A stretch of 43,731 nt of DNA from sequence record NC_019403.1. The stretch is one strand, 5' to 3'. The position numbers and the translations under genes are program-made. This DNA comes from Escherichia phage vB_EcoP_ACG-C91. Below are positions 2,063-15,232 of this stretch, one piece after another. Each line of letters opens with the position of its first letter. The stretch's first letter is position 1. The notes under the pieces were generated by a model. It worked only from the letters and a program-made list of their open reading frames with translations. It was not told the DNA's origin and did no database searches.

Positions 2063-2419
2063 ATGGCTATGTCTAATATGACTTACTCTCAGGTTTACAA
2101 CACCGCTCATGCTGCATTAGTTGAACGTATCTGGGATGATGCTATTGATTGTATCGATAACGCACATGATGCAATCCATGAGGTGGCGGATAGTACTGTA
2201 CCAATCTATTATGCTGACATCTTCTCGGTGATGGCTAGTGAAGGCATCGACCACTTCTTCGAGGATTCTGGCTTAATGCCAGACACTAAGGATGTGACGG
2301 TCGTACTACAAGCCCGTATTTATGAACAACTCACCATTGATTTACGGGAACGTGTTCAAGATATGATTGATGCGTACATCGATTCCGCTGAGGATTCAGA
2401 AGAAGAGGAGGAAGAATGA
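2063..2419 (+). CDS. ocr: Ocr-like anti-restriction protein (T7 gp0.3 homolog; DNA mimic inhibiting type I restriction-modification)
   Basis: Protein begins MAMSNMTY and contains [42 protein letters not shown] and an acidic C-terminus, matching the T7 Ocr sequence as I recall it; GAGGA RBS 7 nt upstream of ATG 2063. Confidence 0.85.
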
Positions 2420-2532
2420 AGATGGAAAGGCAATATAACTTCATCTTCTCAGACGGTGTAACCCTGAAATGTTCCTTACGATTTGCGCAGATTCGTGAGG
2501 AAGTACTAGGAACTACATACAAGCTATTTAGC
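2416..2532 (+). CDS. Possible small early ORF (38 aa) overlapping ocr stop
   Basis: ATG 2416 preceded by GGAGG (inside the ocr acidic tail); position analogous to T7 0.4-0.6 small genes; no homology recognised. Confidence 0.25.
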
Positions 2533-2549
2533 TGACACTATAAGAGAAG
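2526..2549 (+). promoter_or_regulatory. Phage-RNAP promoter-like sequence (ATTTAGCTGACACTATAAGAG)
   Basis: Close to the SP6 consensus ATTTAGGTGACACTATAGAAG; upstream of ORF 2612. Confidence 0.4.
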
Positions 2550-2611
2550 ACTTAACAAGGCGTTGCTACGGTAGCGCCTGATTAAACTTTCACTTACTAG
2601 GAGTTGAGATT

Positions 2612-2797
2612 ATGAAAACCTTGATTGGATGCTTCTTGTTGGCTTCTCTTGCTCTGGCATTTACCGCTAAAGCTGGTTATGACGCTTATAAAGTAGAACA
2701 AGCCCAGCAAGACTGGGCCAAAAAGTTCAACTTGTGCAGCAAGAGCAACACCTACGAGTACTGCAACAAAACACTAAGACACTTATGGAAAGAGTAA
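2612..2797 (+). CDS. Small secreted early protein (61 aa) with N-terminal signal peptide
   Basis: MKTLIGCFLLASLALAFTAKA-GYD: hydrophobic core plus AxA-type cleavage site; mature part has 2 Cys; AGGAG RBS. Confidence 0.6.
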   Translation: MKTLIGCFLLASLALAFTAKAGYDAYKVEQAQQDWAKKFNLCSKSNTYEYCNKTLRHLWKE

Positions 2798-2831
2798 CTA
2801 GCCTATAGCCTACCTGAGTGGGCTATGTGAT

Positions 2832-2852
2832 ATTTACTTACACTATAAGGTG
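2832..2852 (+). promoter_or_regulatory. Weak phage-promoter-like sequence (ATTTACTTACACTATAAGG)
   Basis: Partial match to the CACTATAG core; immediately upstream of ORF 2859. Confidence 0.3.
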
Positions 2853-2858
2853 ATTACT

Positions 2859-3743
2859 ATGACTACTGAAAACACCCTCGTGTCTGTCCGTGAAGCTGCA
2901 ACCGCTGAAATCAAGCAACATTTAGACAATATCGGCACTTCTTACATCAAAGTTGGTGCTTGTCTGAATGAATTACGCGGTGATTTCGAAGGTCAAAAAG
3001 ACTTTTTAGCTTATGTAGAATCAGAGTTCGGCATCAAGAAGGCACAATGCTACAAGCTGATGAGTGTAGCCCGTGTCTTTGAAGGAGACGAACGCTTTAA
3101 AGGTGTGGCTATGCGTGTAATGCTGGCGCTTGTTCCTTTCGCTGATGAAAATATAATCATGGAGAAGGCCGCAGAACTCGCCGCAGATGGCAAGCTGGAC
3201 ACTAACGCCGTAAACGCCTTGATTGAGCCTAAGAAAGAGATAAAGACCGAAACGGTACAATCTAAGGCTGAGACAGTAAAACCGCAGGAGAGCGCGACTG
3301 AGGCCGCAGAATCACAGGAAATGCAAGCGCCGCAGGTAGTGCCACCCGCTAGCGAGCAGGAGGCCGACGAATCAGCACCATGGGGAGAGGAAAGCAAGCC
3401 GGAGGCACCGAAGGCAGCGCCGCTGGATAACACGGCTAATACCGAAAACGCCGCTATGGCTAGCCTCTTAGCACAAATTAAGGCACTGACCGAGCAATTA
3501 CAGGCAGCTAATGACCGCATTGCCTCCTTAAGCAGCGCACGCGAAAGCAAGAAGGCAGCCGCGCCTATGCTGCCGCAATTCAAATCTTCCTGCTTCTATG
3601 CTCGCTTAGGTTTAAGCGCTGAGGAGGCAACGAAGAAAACAGCAGTTAACAAGGCACGCCGCGAACTGGTTAAGCTAGGCTACGGCGAAGGCCATGAAGC
3701 ATGGCCCTTAATCTCTGAGGCAGTAGAAGAATTAACTAAGTAA
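2859..3743 (+). CDS. Early protein with DUF3102-like N-terminal domain and low-complexity acidic/Ala/Gln-rich C-terminal half
   Basis: Motif IKVGACLNELRGDFEGQKDFLAYVESEFGIKKAQCYKLMSVARVF resembles the DUF3102 signature (G-x-x-L-x-E...G-x-F-x-x-W/Y...G-I/F-S-x-x-x-A-x-x-Y-M-x-L/V-A) as I recall it; C-terminal half is compositionally biased with a coiled-coil-like stretch. Confidence 0.7.
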   Translation: MTTENTLVSVREAATAEIKQHLDNIGTSYIKVGACLNELRGDFEGQKDFLAYVESEFGIKKAQCYKLMSVARVFEGDERFKGVAMRVMLALVPFADENIIMEKAAELAADGKLDTNAVNALIEPKKEIKTETVQSKAETVKPQESATEAAESQEMQAPQVVPPASEQEADESAPWGEESKPEAPKAAPLDNTANTENAAMASLLAQIKALTEQLQAANDRIASLSSARESKKAAAPMLPQFKSSCFYARLGLSAEEATKKTAVNKARRELVKLGYGEGHEAWPLISEAVEELTK

Positions 3744-6442: not shown

Positions 6443-6475
6443 GGCCATCCCTTCGGGAGTGGCCTTTTTCTTTTA
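6443..6475 (+). terminator. Rho-independent terminator after RNAP gene
   Basis: GGCCATCCC-TTCG-GGAGTGGCC hairpin followed by TTTTTCTTTT. Confidence 0.6.
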
Positions 6476-6509: not shown

Positions 6510-6525
6510 GTCTCACATGTGAGAC
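6510..6525. repeat. Conserved palindrome GTCTCACATGTGAGAC (copy 1)
   Basis: Perfect 16-bp palindrome immediately upstream of phage promoter. Confidence 0.7.
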
Positions 6526-6527
6526 TT

Positions 6528-6548
6528 ATTTACCGGACACTATAGGAT
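6528..6548 (+). promoter_or_regulatory. Phage-RNAP promoter (ATTTACCGGACACTATAGGAT)
   Basis: Matches the window consensus ATTTAC(T/C)GGACACTATAGAAG, SP6-like CACTATAG core. Confidence 0.7.
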
Positions 6549-6690
6549 AGCCGTCGGAGACGGGAAAGAAAGGGAAGATAAAGGATATAAAGGAAGTAAT
6601 AGGTATTAAAGGTTATATAGGTTATCTAGGAATACCTATTACCTTCTTCCTTCCTCTTATTGCCACTTAGAGGAAGGGCAGATCTAAGTT

Positions 6691-6706
6691 GTCTCACATG
6701 TGAGAC
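6691..6706. repeat. Conserved palindrome GTCTCACATGTGAGAC (copy 2)
   Basis: Perfect palindrome again followed by a promoter-like sequence. Confidence 0.7.
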
Positions 6707-6891: not shown

Positions 6892-8880
6892 ATGGCTATT
6901 ATTCAGAATGTACCGTGTCCTGCCTGTCAAAAGAATGGACATGATATTACTGGCAACCATCTTATGATATTTGAGGATGGCGCGGGTTACTGTAACCGTG
7001 GGCACTTCCATGATAATGGCAGGCCATACTACCATAAGCCCGAAGGTGGCATCGAGATAACCGAGTTGCCCATTACTGGCAATATCAAATATACACCTTC
7101 TCAATTCAAAGAGATGGAGACGGAAGGGAAGATAAGCGACCCTAAGTTGCGCGCCATCGCACTTGGTGGTATGCGTATGAAAGACCGTTGGGAGGTCATG
7201 AATGAGCAAGAAAGGGCAGACCAAGAAGCAGAGTGGAAACTTGATGTTGAATGGTTCCTCACGCTTAAGCGTAAGAACCTTGTGTCCCGTCACATTCGAG
7301 GTGACATCGCAGCAATGTACGATGTGCGCGTTGGACACGATGAAGAGGGAAGAGTCAACCGTCACTATTATCCACGATATGAAAAGGGTGTGCTTGTTGG
7401 AGCAAAATGCCGGACGTTGCCGAAGGATTTTAAGTTCGGACACCTAGGTAAACTCTTTGGTATGCAAGACCTTTTCGGTATGAACACTTTGTCTCACGTG
7501 TTAGACAAGGGGAGACGAAAGGATTGCTTGCTTATTGTAGGTGGTGAACTTGATGCACTAGCAGCGCAGCAGATGCTCCTTGATTCTGCCAAGGGTACTA
7601 AGTGGGAAGGCCAGCCATACCATGTATGGTCTGTCAACAAAGGCGAGTCTTGCCTTGAAGAGATAGTGCAGAACCGTGAGCATATCGCCCAATTCAAGAA
7701 GATTATATGGGGTTTTGATGGGGATGAGGTAGGGCAGAAGCAGAACCAACAAGCTGCTCGCCTGTTTCCTGGCAAATCCTACATCCTCGAATATCCCTCT
7801 GGTTGCAAAGATGCTAACAAGGCATTGATGGCTGGCAAGGCTAAAGAGTTTGTTGATGCTTGGTTTAATGCCAAGTCATCTGATGAAGTCTTTGGTAGCC
7901 AGATTAAATCTATCGCATCTCAAAGGGGTAAGCTCAAGGCTGCACGTCCAGAGCAAGGGTTATCATGGCCTTGGCCTAAGCTGAACAAGGTAACGCTAGG
8001 TATTCGTAAGAACCAGCTTATCATTGTAGGTGCAGGTTCTGGTGTAGGTAAGACTGAGTTCCTTCGCGAAGTGGTTAAGCACCTCATTGAAGAACACGGT
8101 GAATCTGTAGGCATCATTTCTACAGAAGACCCAATGGTCAAGGTGTCCCGTGCTTTTATCGGCAAGTGGATTGATAAGCGTATTGAGTTACCGCCAACCA
8201 ACGACCCGAAAGAAGACGGATACCGTGAGGTGTTCGACTACACCGAGGAAGAAGCTAACGCTGCCATTGATTATGTGGCTGATACAGGAAAGCTATTTGT
8301 GGCTGACCTAGAAGGCGACTATTCTATGGAGAAGGTAGAGCAAACTTGCCTAGAGTTTGAGGCTATGGGCATTTCTAATATCATCATTGATAACTTAACG
8401 GGGATTAAATTAGATGAGCGTGCTTTTGGTGGGAAGGTTGGTGCACTTGATGAATGCGTCAAACGAATTGGTACTATCAAAGACCGACATGCGGTTACGA
8501 TTTTCCTTGTCTCTCACCTTACACGTCCTCCGGCAAACCGTACCCAACACGAAGAAGGTGGCGAAGTTATCCTTTCTGACTTCCGAGGCTCAGGCGCTAT
8601 CGGATTCTGGGCATCTTACGCCTTGGGGATTGAGCGTAATACAAGAGCTGAAACGCTTGATGAAAGGACTACCACGTACATCTCGTGTGTCAAAGACCGC
8701 GATCAAGGTATCTACACTGGAACCAAGGTCATGCTTAAGGGTGACATTCAAACCGGACGTTTAATGGAACCACAAGCTAGAACAAGGTCATTTGATACAG
8801 GTGAAACAAGGCAGCAAGAGGTGCCTGATTTACCGGACACTATAGAAGAGACAACCTTTGACGATGAACAGGAGTTTTAA
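6892..8880 (+). CDS. DNA primase/helicase (T7 gp4-like bifunctional)
   Basis: 662 aa; N-terminal Cys-rich zinc-binding region (CPACQ...CNRGHFH); Walker A GAGSGVGKTEF; acidic C-terminal tail ...DDEQEF. Confidence 0.95.
   Translation: MAIIQNVPCPACQKNGHDITGNHLMIFEDGAGYCNRGHFHDNGRPYYHKPEGGIEITELPITGNIKYTPSQFKEMETEGKISDPKLRAIALGGMRMKDRWEVMNEQERADQEAEWKLDVEWFLTLKRKNLVSRHIRGDIAAMYDVRVGHDEEGRVNRHYYPRYEKGVLVGAKCRTLPKDFKFGHLGKLFGMQDLFGMNTLSHVLDKGRRKDCLLIVGGELDALAAQQMLLDSAKGTKWEGQPYHVWSVNKGESCLEEIVQNREHIAQFKKIIWGFDGDEVGQKQNQQAARLFPGKSYILEYPSGCKDANKALMAGKAKEFVDAWFNAKSSDEVFGSQIKSIASQRGKLKAARPEQGLSWPWPKLNKVTLGIRKNQLIIVGAGSGVGKTEFLREVVKHLIEEHGESVGIISTEDPMVKVSRAFIGKWIDKRIELPPTNDPKEDGYREVFDYTEEEANAAIDYVADTGKLFVADLEGDYSMEKVEQTCLEFEAMGISNIIIDNLTGIKLDERAFGGKVGALDECVKRIGTIKDRHAVTIFLVSHLTRPPANRTQHEEGGEVILSDFRGSGAIGFWASYALGIERNTRAETLDERTTTYISCVKDRDQGIYTGTKVMLKGDIQTGRLMEPQARTRSFDTGETRQQEVPDLPDTIEETTFDDEQEF
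8827..8847 (+). promoter_or_regulatory. Phage-RNAP promoter embedded in the 3' end of the primase/helicase gene
   Basis: ATTTACCGGACACTATAGAAG exact consensus; encodes the DLPDTIEE residues of the helicase tail. Confidence 0.6.
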
Positions 8881-9055: not shown

Positions 9056-9077
9056 CTTGTCTCACATGTGAGACAAG
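9056..9077. repeat. Conserved palindrome, extended to 22 bp (CTTGTCTCACATGTGAGACAAG) (copy 3)
   Basis: Perfect 22-bp palindrome. Confidence 0.7.
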
Positions 9078-10065: not shown

Positions 10066-10264
10066 ACACAGCCTTAAGATGTTTGATGGTCACGAAGACC
10101 TGCAAGCACAAATTACTAATCAAGCCTTCCTGTTTGCACAGTTAACTATGGCTGAAGCAAAGAAGAATAGTCTGACATGTGAGCAGGTTATCAAGGAGGC
10201 AACTTGGGAGCCACACCAAGGCAAATACATGGGCCAGAAACTAACTGTAACACGCAGTCGGTAA
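10055..10264 (+). CDS. Hypothetical protein (69 aa; alternative start ATG 10079)
   Basis: ORF track; overlaps previous gene by 11 nt. Confidence 0.5.
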   Translation: MQNKHSLKMFDGHEDLQAQITNQAFLFAQLTMAEAKKNSLTCEQVIKEATWEPHQGKYMGQKLTVTRSR

Positions 10265-10273
10265 GTCAAGGGT

Positions 10274-10291
10274 TGTCTCACACGTGAGACA
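10274..10291. repeat. Conserved palindrome variant TGTCTCACACGTGAGACA (copy 4), followed by a T-run
   Basis: Palindrome then GCCTTTTAT; possible terminator or processing hairpin. Confidence 0.6.
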
Positions 10292-15128: not shown

Positions 15129-15144
15129 GTCTCACACGTGAGAC
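15129..15144. repeat. Conserved palindrome GTCTCACACGTGAGAC (copy 5)
   Basis: Perfect palindrome directly after stop of ORF 14909..15127 and 15 bp upstream of a promoter. Confidence 0.7.
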
Positions 15145-15159
15145 AACTCGGTGTCCGGT

Positions 15160-15180
15160 ATTTACTGGACACTATAGAAG
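15160..15180 (+). promoter_or_regulatory. Phage-RNAP promoter (ATTTACTGGACACTATAGAAG)
   Basis: Exact consensus. Confidence 0.75.
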
Positions 15181-15232
15181 AGAAGAATTTTAATCGGCGA
15201 TAATGCCATAACCAACAAAAGGAGAATTTAAT

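Follow-up and report, generated by a model that had tools for sequence, protein, structure and literature searches.

SP6-like phages serve as a source of the SP6 and K1E RNA polymerases and as K1-capsule therapy phages. T7 gp0.3 (Ocr) inhibits type I restriction–modification (R-M) and BREX systems (PMC7261183), and its mechanism is treated in PMC7261183 and PMC11317158. KorB of plasmid RK2 (1r71, 8qa8) is a ParB-family global regulator. In J-domain proteins, an H-to-Q exchange in the HPD motif abolishes the functional J-domain–Hsp70 interaction (PMC3486835). In the open-access text that was searched, no function was assigned to SP6 gp7 or K1-5 gp6 and no link was made between Molineuxvirinae and J domains.

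The window (the whole stretch of 43,731 nucleotides that was analysed) is a Vectrevirus genome of the K1E/K1-5/SP6 group, with 92–94% nucleotide identity to K1E and fTuEco01. All window genes lie on the plus strand. Positions 2063–3743 carry four genes, all on the plus strand, which are K1-5 gp3 to gp6. Comparison of annotations matched the early block gene for gene with K1-5 gp3 to gp7, in agreement with a sequence-only reading that had placed it upstream of the RNA polymerase (RNAP) gene. That reading had described three consecutive genes; they are not consecutive, because a 37-residue gene that it overlooked, with matches to phrog_11746 and K1-5 gp4, intervenes between ocr and the 61-residue ORF. 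Gene order is shared with K1-5 gp3–gp6 and SP6 gp5–gp7, and the early proteins of K1-5 and K1E are 92–98% identical to their window counterparts. Unlike the window, SP6 has an unrelated 63-residue membrane protein (gp6) in the slot of the 61-residue ORF and lacks a gp4-like ORF. The features of the block are as follows.

2063–2419, plus strand: ocr, homologue of K1-5 gp3, SP6 gp5 and T7 gp0.3, encoding a 118-residue DNA-mimic anti-restriction protein (Pfam, phrog and PDB matches)
2422–2535, plus strand: 37-residue ORF, homologue of K1-5 gp4 (phrog_11746, E = 6.9e-30), annotated in K1-5 and fTuEco01
2526–2548, plus strand: SP6/K1-5-type phage-RNAP promoter-like motif ATTTAGCTGACACTATAAGAGAA (motif match), with A replacing G at +1
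2612–2797, plus strand: 61-residue ORFan, K1-5 gp5 (phrog_20059, hydropathy and homologue alignment)
2612–2674, plus strand: predicted Sec signal peptide of the 61-residue ORF, residues 1–21, AKA/G (hydropathy and alignment)
2804–2827, plus strand: hairpin with a 4-nt loop and a stem of 10 pairs, located after ORF 2612 and before the second promoter-like motif (terminator-like scan)
2832–2853, plus strand: second, degenerate phage-promoter-like motif ATTTACTTACACTATAAGGTGA, one base under the consensus spacing, with A at +1
2859–3743, plus strand: 294-residue core gene of the K1-5 gp6/SP6 gp7 family (homologues and AF2 model)

The window proteins were searched against Pfam, NCBIfam and PADLOC, where Ocr was the sole match. 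The block is mostly ordinary: Ocr is already annotated in K1-5/SP6-type phages, and the remaining genes encode hypothetical proteins that are already known. We consider that 2063–3743 is probably the usual set of early genes of a Vectrevirus of the K1-5/K1E type, in which four genes evolve independently; proposed roles are given below.

The call of an Ocr homologue was upheld by a full-length alignment to T7 gp0.3 (PDB entry 1s7z; E = 3.9e-39, residues 1–117, 63% identity). The protein also matched Pfam PF08684 (E = 6e-40, 136 bits versus a cut-off of 25) and phrog_2568 (E = 2e-48), and it contains 29 Asp/Glu versus five Lys/Arg residues (pI 4.05). GAGGA is located 9 nt upstream of the start at 2063; an ATG at 2048 was rejected as the start from the position of the ribosome-binding site (RBS) and the N-termini of homologues. 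From the 63% full-length identity we infer that the function is as in T7, so that the protein would dimerise, mimic DNA and inhibit the methyltransferase/restriction complexes of type I R-M and BREX systems. ocr is present in 570 phage records, mostly of T7-like phages.

The 37-residue ORF is extended to 39 residues if the start at 2416 is used, a codon that shares an ATGA with the end of ocr; the phrog_11746 alignment begins at residue 3 of the small ORF. The N-terminus of the 61-residue ORF consists of MK, TLIGCFLLASLALAF and TAKA/G, with a KD value of ~2.3 over residues 3–17. The classical signal peptide claimed for this ORF was assessed by sequence rules (hydropathy and alignment) rather than by a predictor score, and the n–h–c pattern was confirmed: the n-region is positive, the h-region falls within the 7–15 residues of Sec (SPase I) signal peptides and small residues occupy −3 and −1. 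The A19-K20-A21/G22 site is conserved, with A19, K20 and A21 invariant across all homologues. LIGC at residues 4–7 is lipobox-like; this reading was rejected, as only three residues precede the motif and its closeness to the N-terminus makes lipoprotein processing unlikely. Judged from its sequence, the protein is most likely a Sec substrate with a cleavage site behind AKA21; alternatively, the signal peptide could be an uncleaved anchor. The predicted mature product has 40 residues, is basic and contains two conserved cysteines. Export would deliver it as a periplasmic peptide with a possible C42–C51 disulfide, which we guess might act on the envelope in superinfection exclusion or host-envelope takeover. 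The AF2 model was too poor for a fold search because its pLDDT was 60. The ORF occurs in only six protein clusters and 12 phage records. In related phages at least seven unrelated proteins of 39–75 residues, nearly all with a hydrophobic helix, are encoded in the slot that precedes the gp6-family gene, and in some relatives it holds no small ORF. This hypervariable 'small envelope protein' slot is a candidate source of superinfection-exclusion or envelope-directed takeover factors.

SP6-type promoter-like motifs are predicted by motif directly upstream of both ORF 2612 and ORF 2859. The first overlaps the 3′ end of the 37-residue ORF and is kept in K1-5, fTuEco01 and vB_EcoP_D and diverged in SP6; the second overlaps the RBS of ORF 2859.

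The interest of the block may lie in the gene before the RNA polymerase, which is conserved across SP6-like phages. Its product has 294 residues, not the 295 first reported; a GTG at 2850 was rejected as the start, again from the RBS position and homologue N-termini. Full-length copies of the gene occur in 212 records of SP6-like phages (31–99% identity; 66–70% for SP6 gp7). Synteny with the RNAP gene is kept in phages of both Molineuxvirinae and Colwellvirinae, the gene lying 0–2 annotated genes upstream of it in every record inspected (K1-5, SP6, VEN, CPP1m, Achelous and Era103). On such comparative evidence the gene behaves as a core developmental gene and not as an accessory counter-defence gene. 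Public labels of homologues ('VLTF-4', 'endolysin' and 'PRK05035') were set aside as low-complexity artefacts or errors, and the 'gene 0.3?' of the phiA318 paper was rejected as it was based on position only. The following parts of the protein were predicted.

2886–3224, plus strand: N-terminal helical helix-turn-helix (HTH) domain, residues 10–122
2994–3080, plus strand: helix-turn-helix, residues 46–74 (AF2 model and comparison with relatives)
3231–3428, plus strand: acidic disordered linker, residues 125–190
3435–3554, plus strand: long helix, residues 193–232
3555–3740, plus strand: J-like domain without HPD, residues 233–294

The AF2 model has pLDDT values above 95 over residues 30–120 and 200–294. 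The C-terminal half had been described as low-complexity and acidic, which applies to residues ~125–190 and not to residues 193–294, a confidently predicted helix and J-like domain. The long helix probably dimerises. When a profile of the C-terminal domain was searched against the PDB, about 40 of the 48 matches were J domains (best E = 7.7e-4). The J-domain fold is present, with helices I–III and a KAYRxLA-type helix II, and the family carries the J signatures LGL, AyR.L and EA..L..A. Pfam DnaJ (PF00226) matched 20 of 114 relatives (best E = 1e-5), and the scores inspected were all below the gathering cut-off. The HPD between helices II and III is absent from the window protein, where the loop reads KLGYGEGHEAW, and from essentially the whole family, in which GYGxG-H, YTAxxN and NPD/TPE variants are found instead; only the distant relative P0243 retains it. 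As HPD is missing, the domain is termed J-like, and the protein is not classed as a J-domain protein.

The N-terminal domain, as modelled, is a candidate HTH domain of KorB/ParB type that is related to DUF3102. The DUF3102 resemblance suggested in the sequence-only reading is valid at the level of family and fold and fails for the window protein itself. Neither the 294-residue protein nor its N-terminal domain matched DUF3102 (PF11300; cut-off 24.4 bits) even at E ≤ 10. The profile matched 57 of 114 relatives at E ≤ 0.1 (best 1.5e-7), one tested relative, P0160, scored 26.7 bits, above the gathering score of 24.4, and the BFVD structure neighbours of the domain were DUF3102 proteins (E = 6e-4 to 0.1, probability 1.0). 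DUF3102 profile positions ~23–75 coincide with the HTH segment in the matching relatives. The label explains nothing, since DUF3102 is without known function. Sequence searches of the PDB with the protein and its N-domain profile returned noise only, Foldseek against the PDB gave nothing below E = 1, and the N-domain profile search for homologous proteins retrieved only eight close fragments and no bridge to DUF3102. No ParB/Srx CTP-binding N-domain was found in Pfam, the protein opening directly with the helical HTH domain; as this domain is missing, the protein is at most KorB-like in action and not a member of that family. The predicted recognition helix spans residues 61–74 (KKAQCYKLMSVARV), with the codons of Y65 and K66 at 3051–3056.

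A palindrome of 16–17 bp, GTCTCAC-N2-3-GTGAGAC, is repeated in the window: the enrichment count gave eight copies versus 0.26 expected. Seven copies are listed here without strand.

569–584: copy GTCTCACATGTTAGAC with one mismatch, upstream of sigma-70-like early promoters at 608–680; the SP6 orthologue is at 493
6510–6525: GTCTCACATGTGAGAC, a perfect palindrome separated by 2 bp from the downstream phage promoter at 6528–6550
6691–6706: perfect palindrome separated by 5 bp from the downstream variant phage promoter at 6712 (ATTTACCGGACAGTATAGA)
7491–7506: copy inside the primase/helicase gene, orthologous to SP6 7071
9059–9074: perfect intergenic palindrome that caps an extended hairpin of 13 bp, with a U-rich tract behind it (−20 kcal/mol, z −6.2)
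10275–10290: intergenic copy with central CG, likewise capping an extended hairpin of 13 bp, with a U tract behind it (−17.9 kcal/mol, z −6.2)
15129–15144: copy separated by 15 bp from the downstream phage promoter at 15160–15182

The copies at 6510 and 6691 bracket the AT-rich intergenic region between the RNAP and primase genes. In SP6 the sites are at orthologous positions with a different half-site, and at SP6 7071 the codon goes from His to Asn along with the half-site change. Phages of Erwinia, Vibrio, Pseudomonas and Proteus carry the element too, often directly next to their promoters, which differ. No repeated palindrome was found in K1F, a T7-like phage of the same host that has ocr and lacks the 294-residue gene.

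Related loci were collected with a five-sequence alignment of the 294-residue family as the query. Among ~30–31 phages the palindrome type covaries with residues 65–66 of the predicted recognition helix, with about three independent evolutionary events behind the pattern. K66 is invariant in the 18 proteins of the GTCTCAC class (37–100% identity), and residue 66 is His or Asn in all 11 of the GTCCAAC class, the closest relatives of the window outside its genus (53–73% identity). Y65 is replaced by Ser in both GTTTCAC-class loci, and in CPP1m, with half-site GTTCGAG, residues 63–67 are rewritten. As a control, none of 231 invariant RNAP columns switches between palindrome classes. Since most of the operator contacts by which KorB recognises its site are made by residues that lie outside its HTH, 'recognition helix' is used here by analogy only.

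This covariation suggests that the palindrome and gp6 form a KorB-like operator system, in which GTCTCACATGTGAGAC and GTCTAACGTGTTGGAC may be targets of K1-5/K1E gp6 and SP6 gp7. A gp6 dimer would bind the genus-specific palindrome, copies of which are found at the left end, next to three phage promoters around the putative origin and at middle-gene boundaries. From these sites it would globally regulate the passage from early to middle transcription and/or the initiation of replication, in the manner of KorB, with the J-like domain as a protein-interaction module. We tentatively put forward, as a possibility short of a probable assignment, that Molineuxvirinae and Colwellvirinae share a previously unrecognised system of a core protein with a KorB-like HTH and degenerate J domain and a co-evolving 16–17-bp operator, whose specificity would be set by residues 65–66 (K for GTCTCAC; N/H for GTCCAAC).

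The palindromes might instead be RNA-level elements (terminator, processing or stabiliser stem-loops) or the targets of another factor, and have no connection with the 294-residue protein, which would then be a host-takeover protein that binds, for example, host DNA, the nucleoid or RNAP. The copies at 9059 and 10275, within 13-bp hairpins with U tracts, fit this explanation at least as well as an operator, as does the asymmetry of the SP6 copies, which consistently form a T·G (U·G) pair on the plus strand; moreover, many copies are at gene ends immediately ahead of an RBS, and all genes lie on the plus strand. However, the stem of the other five of the seven copies is weak, with just 6 bp (z −0.7 to −1.7), and the copy at the left end, which is inverted in SP6, precedes the early promoters. 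The copies also share one core per genome that changes in concert between genera, and this concerted change calls for a sequence-specific trans factor; residues 65–66 of the only conserved HTH candidate examined follow the half-site change. We regard the RNA-level explanation as unlikely.

It is still less plausible, and in our estimation quite improbable, that the protein works as a J-domain co-chaperone and brings host DnaK to DNA or a phage complex, with chaperone hijacking as its main role, a logic that would resemble that of RB43 Rki or polyomavirus large T antigen. The J-domain fold with its helix II 'AyR.L' signature, the Pfam DnaJ matches, the NPD or TPE kept at the loop in some clades, the HPD of P0243 and the precedent of a phage J-domain protein (PMC3486835) are in its favour, but the window protein (loop GYGEGH) and essentially the whole family lack HPD and the DnaJ scores inspected are all below the gathering cut-off. 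Since HPD is absent, gp6 probably does not stimulate the DnaK ATPase. The earlier reading, in which Ocr cooperates with the secreted peptide and the DUF3102-like protein in a single anti-defence or host-takeover module against R-M, BREX or other systems, is very improbable: the genes share the early transcription unit that precedes the RNAP gene, Ocr is a genuine anti-defence protein and the variable slot behaves as an accessory-gene hotspot, yet the parts do not co-occur across genomes (Erwinia phage Era103 has a SAMase-like gene in place of ocr and keeps the gp6-family gene, the inspected Colwellvirinae VEN, CPP1m and Achelous retain that gene with no ocr annotated, and the 61-residue ORF is limited to its 12 records, with an empty slot in some relatives), promoter-like motifs and hairpins separate the genes, the 294-residue gene is conserved like a core gene and neither it nor the 61-residue ORF gave a PADLOC or anti-defence signal.

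If the KorB-like operator reading is true, gp6 would be a global transcription/replication switch in phages with a single-subunit RNAP and would fill the role of T7 gp0.7, gp2 or lysozyme; no homologue of T7 gp2 or gp0.7 was seen in the phage records inspected. The system could explain the timing of early-to-middle transcription in SP6-like phages. The domain description, together with an operator prediction that includes a specificity-switching residue, would make an unexplained core gene an experimentally tractable regulator.

The window Ocr shares with T7 gp0.3 a full-length collinear alignment (118 and 117 residues, respectively), an acidic C-terminal tail, a pI of ~4 and an early-region position. 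The window phage differs from T7 in belonging to the subfamily Molineuxvirinae and in having five small ORFs ahead of ocr, which is thus not the first early gene. The 294-residue protein has no detectable sequence similarity to KorB and, unlike it, lacks both the ParB/Srx CTPase N-domain and the KorB C-terminal dimerisation domain; its setting is a lytic phage with its own RNAP. The three-helix J fold is shared with phage RB43 Rki and other J-domain proteins, and a J-like domain without HPD is found in Tim16/Pam16, whereas the C-terminal position of this domain sets the protein apart from RB43 Rki, CbpA and Tim16/Pam16. Escherichia coli CbpA combines a J domain with DNA binding, and the 294-residue protein likewise joins a J fold to a predicted DNA-binding part.

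An ORF check confirmed the three ORFs that the sequence-only reading had placed in the early region 2063–3743, upstream of the RNA polymerase (RNAP) gene, and had interpreted as an anti-defence module of Ocr, a secreted protein and a DUF3102-like protein. The three genes are not consecutive, as a fourth gene between ocr and the 61-residue ORF had been overlooked. The region matches K1-5 genes 3, 4, 5 and 6 one to one, and is followed by K1-5 gene 7 (RNA polymerase); the SP6 equivalents are gp5 (ocr), gp6 and gp7, followed by the RNAP gp8. At 43.7 kb, with its genes laid out on one strand and a monotonic GC skew, the window fits a complete SP6-group podovirus, and K1E, fTuEco01 and other Vectrevirus genomes share 92–94% identity with its first 6.5 kb. 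The features of the early block are as follows.

608–680 and 1620–1648, sigma-70-like promoters, the latter a second strong one
2063–2419, + strand, ocr, 118 residues
2422–2535, + strand, fourth gene, 37 residues, starting just past the ocr stop and matching phrog_11746 and K1-5 gp4
2526–2548, + strand, phage-promoter-like motif ATTTAGCTGACACTATAAGAG of the SP6/K1-5 type, directly upstream of the 61-residue ORF
2612–2797, + strand, 61-residue ORF (K1-5 gp5)
2832–2853, + strand, second, degenerate phage-promoter-like motif, directly upstream of the 294-residue ORF
2859–3743, + strand, 294-residue ORF (K1-5 gp6/SP6 gp7 family, here the gp6 family)
About 6443–6475, strong hairpin with a T-run after the RNAP gene

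The sigma-70-like promoters and the hairpin appear to bound an early unit which, we infer, would be transcribed as such. Five more small ORFs lie upstream of ocr at 860–1908 (phrogs 2061, 19860, 9275, 6403 and 9374, without assigned function). The motifs at 2526 and 2832 carry A at +1, in contrast to the G of the approximately 12 consensus phage promoters in the window (ATTTACTGGACACTATAGAAG), and the motif at 2832 is one base short relative to the consensus. Both are kept in K1-5, fTuEco01 and vB_EcoP_D, and SP6 also keeps the motif at 2526. If active, these putative promoters would allow gp5, gp6 and the RNAP gene itself to be transcribed by the phage RNAP, a positive feedback. Similar A(+1) motifs lie upstream of the RNAP gene in two related phage loci, L004 (2014–2036 and 2323–2345) and L005 (about 2104–2126).

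Ocr starts at ATG 2063, with GAGGA 9 nt upstream, and its N-terminus (MAMSNMTY...) resembles that of T7 gp0.3. Its assignment was upheld by Pfam PF08684 (136 bits, E = 6e-40), by phrog_2568 ('ocr-like anti-restriction', E = 2e-48) and by alignment of residues 1–117 with T7 gp0.3 in the PDB (entry 1s7z and nine others, E = 3.9e-39). The protein shares 63% sequence identity with T7 gp0.3 and has a pI of 4.05 and 29 acidic residues. Homologues were found in 570 phage records, T7-like for the most part; some carry the label 'protein kinase' or 'receptor binding protein kinase', probably in error. Ocr belongs to a well studied family, whose members inhibit type I restriction–modification and BREX (PMC7261183, PMC11317158). 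They can also act as triggers of PARIS (PMC11464382). The protein is nothing new. In Erwinia phage Era103 its position is occupied by a SAM hydrolase-like gene of the T3 gp0.3 type (2159–2590), and the downstream gp6-family gene is retained: the anti-restriction position is exchangeable. No ocr was found among the annotations of the Colwellvirinae examples inspected.

The signal-peptide-like N-terminus proposed for the 61-residue ORF was borne out as a sequence pattern. In the hydropathy profile MK, TLIGCFLLASLALAF and TAKA|G follow each other as textbook n-, h- and c-regions, and A19, K20 and A21 are identical in every homologue. The mature part (40 residues) is basic, and both of its cysteines are conserved in full-length homologues. 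The family is tiny: 5.8 billion proteins yielded six clusters, and the 12 phage records that carry it all belong to Vectrevirus. The predicted structure was of too low quality for use. Across different SP6-like phages the slot immediately upstream of the gp6-family gene holds at least seven unrelated proteins of 39–75 residues (2612–2797 here; L005, 2181–2372; L001, 2941–3168; and loci L015, L019, L025, L026, L029, L033 and L011), and in a few it is empty. Nearly all of these proteins contain a single, strongly hydrophobic helix; a signal-peptide-like end such as ...AHA|S also occurs in some. Because unrelated, mostly hydrophobic-helix small proteins share this position, it is best described from sequence as a hypervariable 'small envelope protein' slot. 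The 61-residue ORF is an accessory ORFan whose signal peptide is plausible. Export of its product is a reasonable prediction, with somewhat better than even chances; superinfection exclusion or envelope takeover would be a guess at its role.

The 294-residue ORF belongs to phrog_4571, which has no assigned function. Full-length homologues (31–99% identity) were found in 212 phage records of 43–47 kb, with hosts including Escherichia, Salmonella, Klebsiella, Proteus, Erwinia, Pectobacterium, Vibrio, Aeromonas, Pseudomonas and Marinomonas, and a search of 1.84 billion proteins gave 131 representative clusters of the family. The RNAP gene lies 0–2 annotated genes downstream in all genomes inspected. 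Such core-gene behaviour speaks against an accessory role in anti-defence and, because the gene is retained where Ocr is replaced (Era103) or unannotated (the Colwellvirinae examples), also against a functional unit with Ocr. With a core gene, an exchangeable Ocr and an accessory ORFan, the module reading is unsupported; we are highly confident of the gene identities and of this conclusion. The names 'late transcription factor VLTF-4', 'endolysin' and 'andolysin' given to public homologues are probably mis-annotations, and the feature table of OR594181 appears to be shifted relative to its own sequence.

The AlphaFold2 model of the 294-residue protein has a mean pLDDT of 83, rising above 95 within the domains.

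Residues 10–122, helical N-domain
Residues 125–190, disordered acidic linker rich in P/E/Q/A, pI 4.3
Residues 193–232, 40-residue helix
Residues 239–293, small three-helix C-domain

The low-complexity acidic character ascribed to the C-terminal half therefore applies to the linker, but not to the helix and C-domain that follow. The proposed DUF3102 resemblance fails for the window protein itself, as neither it nor its isolated N-domain matched Pfam even at E ≤ 10, formally an outcome that the sequence-only reading had named as refuting it. The resemblance is nevertheless real at the family level: PF11300 is matched (E ≤ 0.1) by 57 of 114 members, the best at 1.5e-7 and all of them at profile positions of about 23–75, the gathering score was exceeded in one of ten members examined, and a Foldseek search of viral models placed DUF3102 proteins next after the orthologue (E = 6e-4). 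J-domain proteins made up about 40 of the 48 matches of the C-domain profile to PDB sequences (best E = 7.7e-4), and 20 of 114 relatives matched Pfam DnaJ below threshold (best 1e-5). The family alignment has the J signatures LGL (helix I), AyR.L (helix II) and EA..L..A...L (helix III). The loop of the window protein (KLGYGEGHEAW) lacks the HPD tripeptide, and other clades have YTAxxN, NPD or TPE; the C-domain is thus J-like and is not to be classed as a J-domain co-chaperone. HPD was seen in a single family member, the distant relative P0243 (...TFHPDK... at the J-loop position), which did not match Pfam DnaJ at E ≤ 0.1; it hints at an ancestor with a functional J domain. Overall, the predicted HTH plus J-like architecture is probable.

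A terminator scan revealed two perfect copies of a 16 bp palindrome, GTCTCACATGTGAGAC, in the intergenic region between the RNAP and primase genes. Allowing up to three mismatches, the window has eight copies (0.26 expected), all in its first 15 kb: seven good copies and a weaker one (10170–10185). The good copies are as follows.

569–584, upstream of the early host-type promoters
6510–6525 and 6691–6706, each just upstream (2 and 5 bp, respectively) of a phage promoter, the two promoters flanking an AT-rich region
7491–7506, within the primase gene
9059–9074 and 10275–10290, intergenic
15129–15144, 15 bp upstream of a promoter

The AT-rich stretch (6545–6690), downstream of the RNAP gene and between two palindrome–promoter units, holds a long inverted repeat (…GGAAGTAATAGGTAT… / …ATACCTATTACCTTCTTCC…); as its position is equivalent to that of the T7 primary origin, it is likely to be a replication origin.

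The palindrome is conserved, with genus-specific half-sites, across Molineuxvirinae and Colwellvirinae. Each of the phages compared here carries 4–9 copies in its early/middle region, and these often adjoin promoters that are peculiar to the phage concerned. In SP6, sites with another half-site (GTCTAAC-NN-GTTGGAC) occupy orthologous positions, including the primase-gene site, where a His-to-Asn codon change accompanies the half-site change. Other forms are as follows.

Proteus PM85, GTCCAAC-N3-GTTGGAC
Erwinia Era103, GTCTCAC-N2-GTGAGAC
Vibrio VEN and Pseudomonas Achelous, GTCTCAC-N3-GTGAGAC
Marinomonas CPP1m, GTTCGAGATCTCGAAC

Because copies are identical within a genome and change in concert between genera, they imply a co-evolving sequence-specific trans factor, most plausibly phage-encoded.

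With the 294-residue protein as the candidate factor, gp6-family proteins from 32 viral contigs and seven reference phages were aligned and compared, each with the dominant palindrome of its locus. Y65 and K66, which lie in the second helix of the predicted HTH (KKAQxYKLM), are present in all 18 proteins from GTCTCAC-type genomes (37–100% identity to the window protein). Position 66 is H or N in 11 of 11 from GTCCAAC-type genomes, which are the closest relatives of the window protein outside its genus (53–73% identity). Both GTTTCAC-type loci have S65, and in CPP1m residues 63–67 are rewritten. Of the 294 columns only three tell the two large classes apart, and among these K66 alone is invariant within a class; in the RNAP, compared as a control, 231 columns are class-invariant and not one of them switches between classes. 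No repeated palindrome was found in K1F, a T7-like phage of the same host with ocr and lacking the gp6-family gene. As far as the searchable literature shows, the predicted architecture and candidate operator of the 294-residue protein are undescribed. The comparisons support a KorB-like arrangement, with roughly three independent co-changes behind it, in which one HTH protein would serve many short palindromic operators, some of them at promoters. Against this arrangement, the copies at 9059 and 10275 form the tips of 13 bp hairpins that have U tracts (z = −6.2, at −18 to −20 kcal/mol), and the SP6 copies show a U·G-compatible asymmetry, so that the palindromes may act at the RNA level. Binding of the palindromes by the 294-residue protein is a tentative proposal, with somewhat less than even chances.
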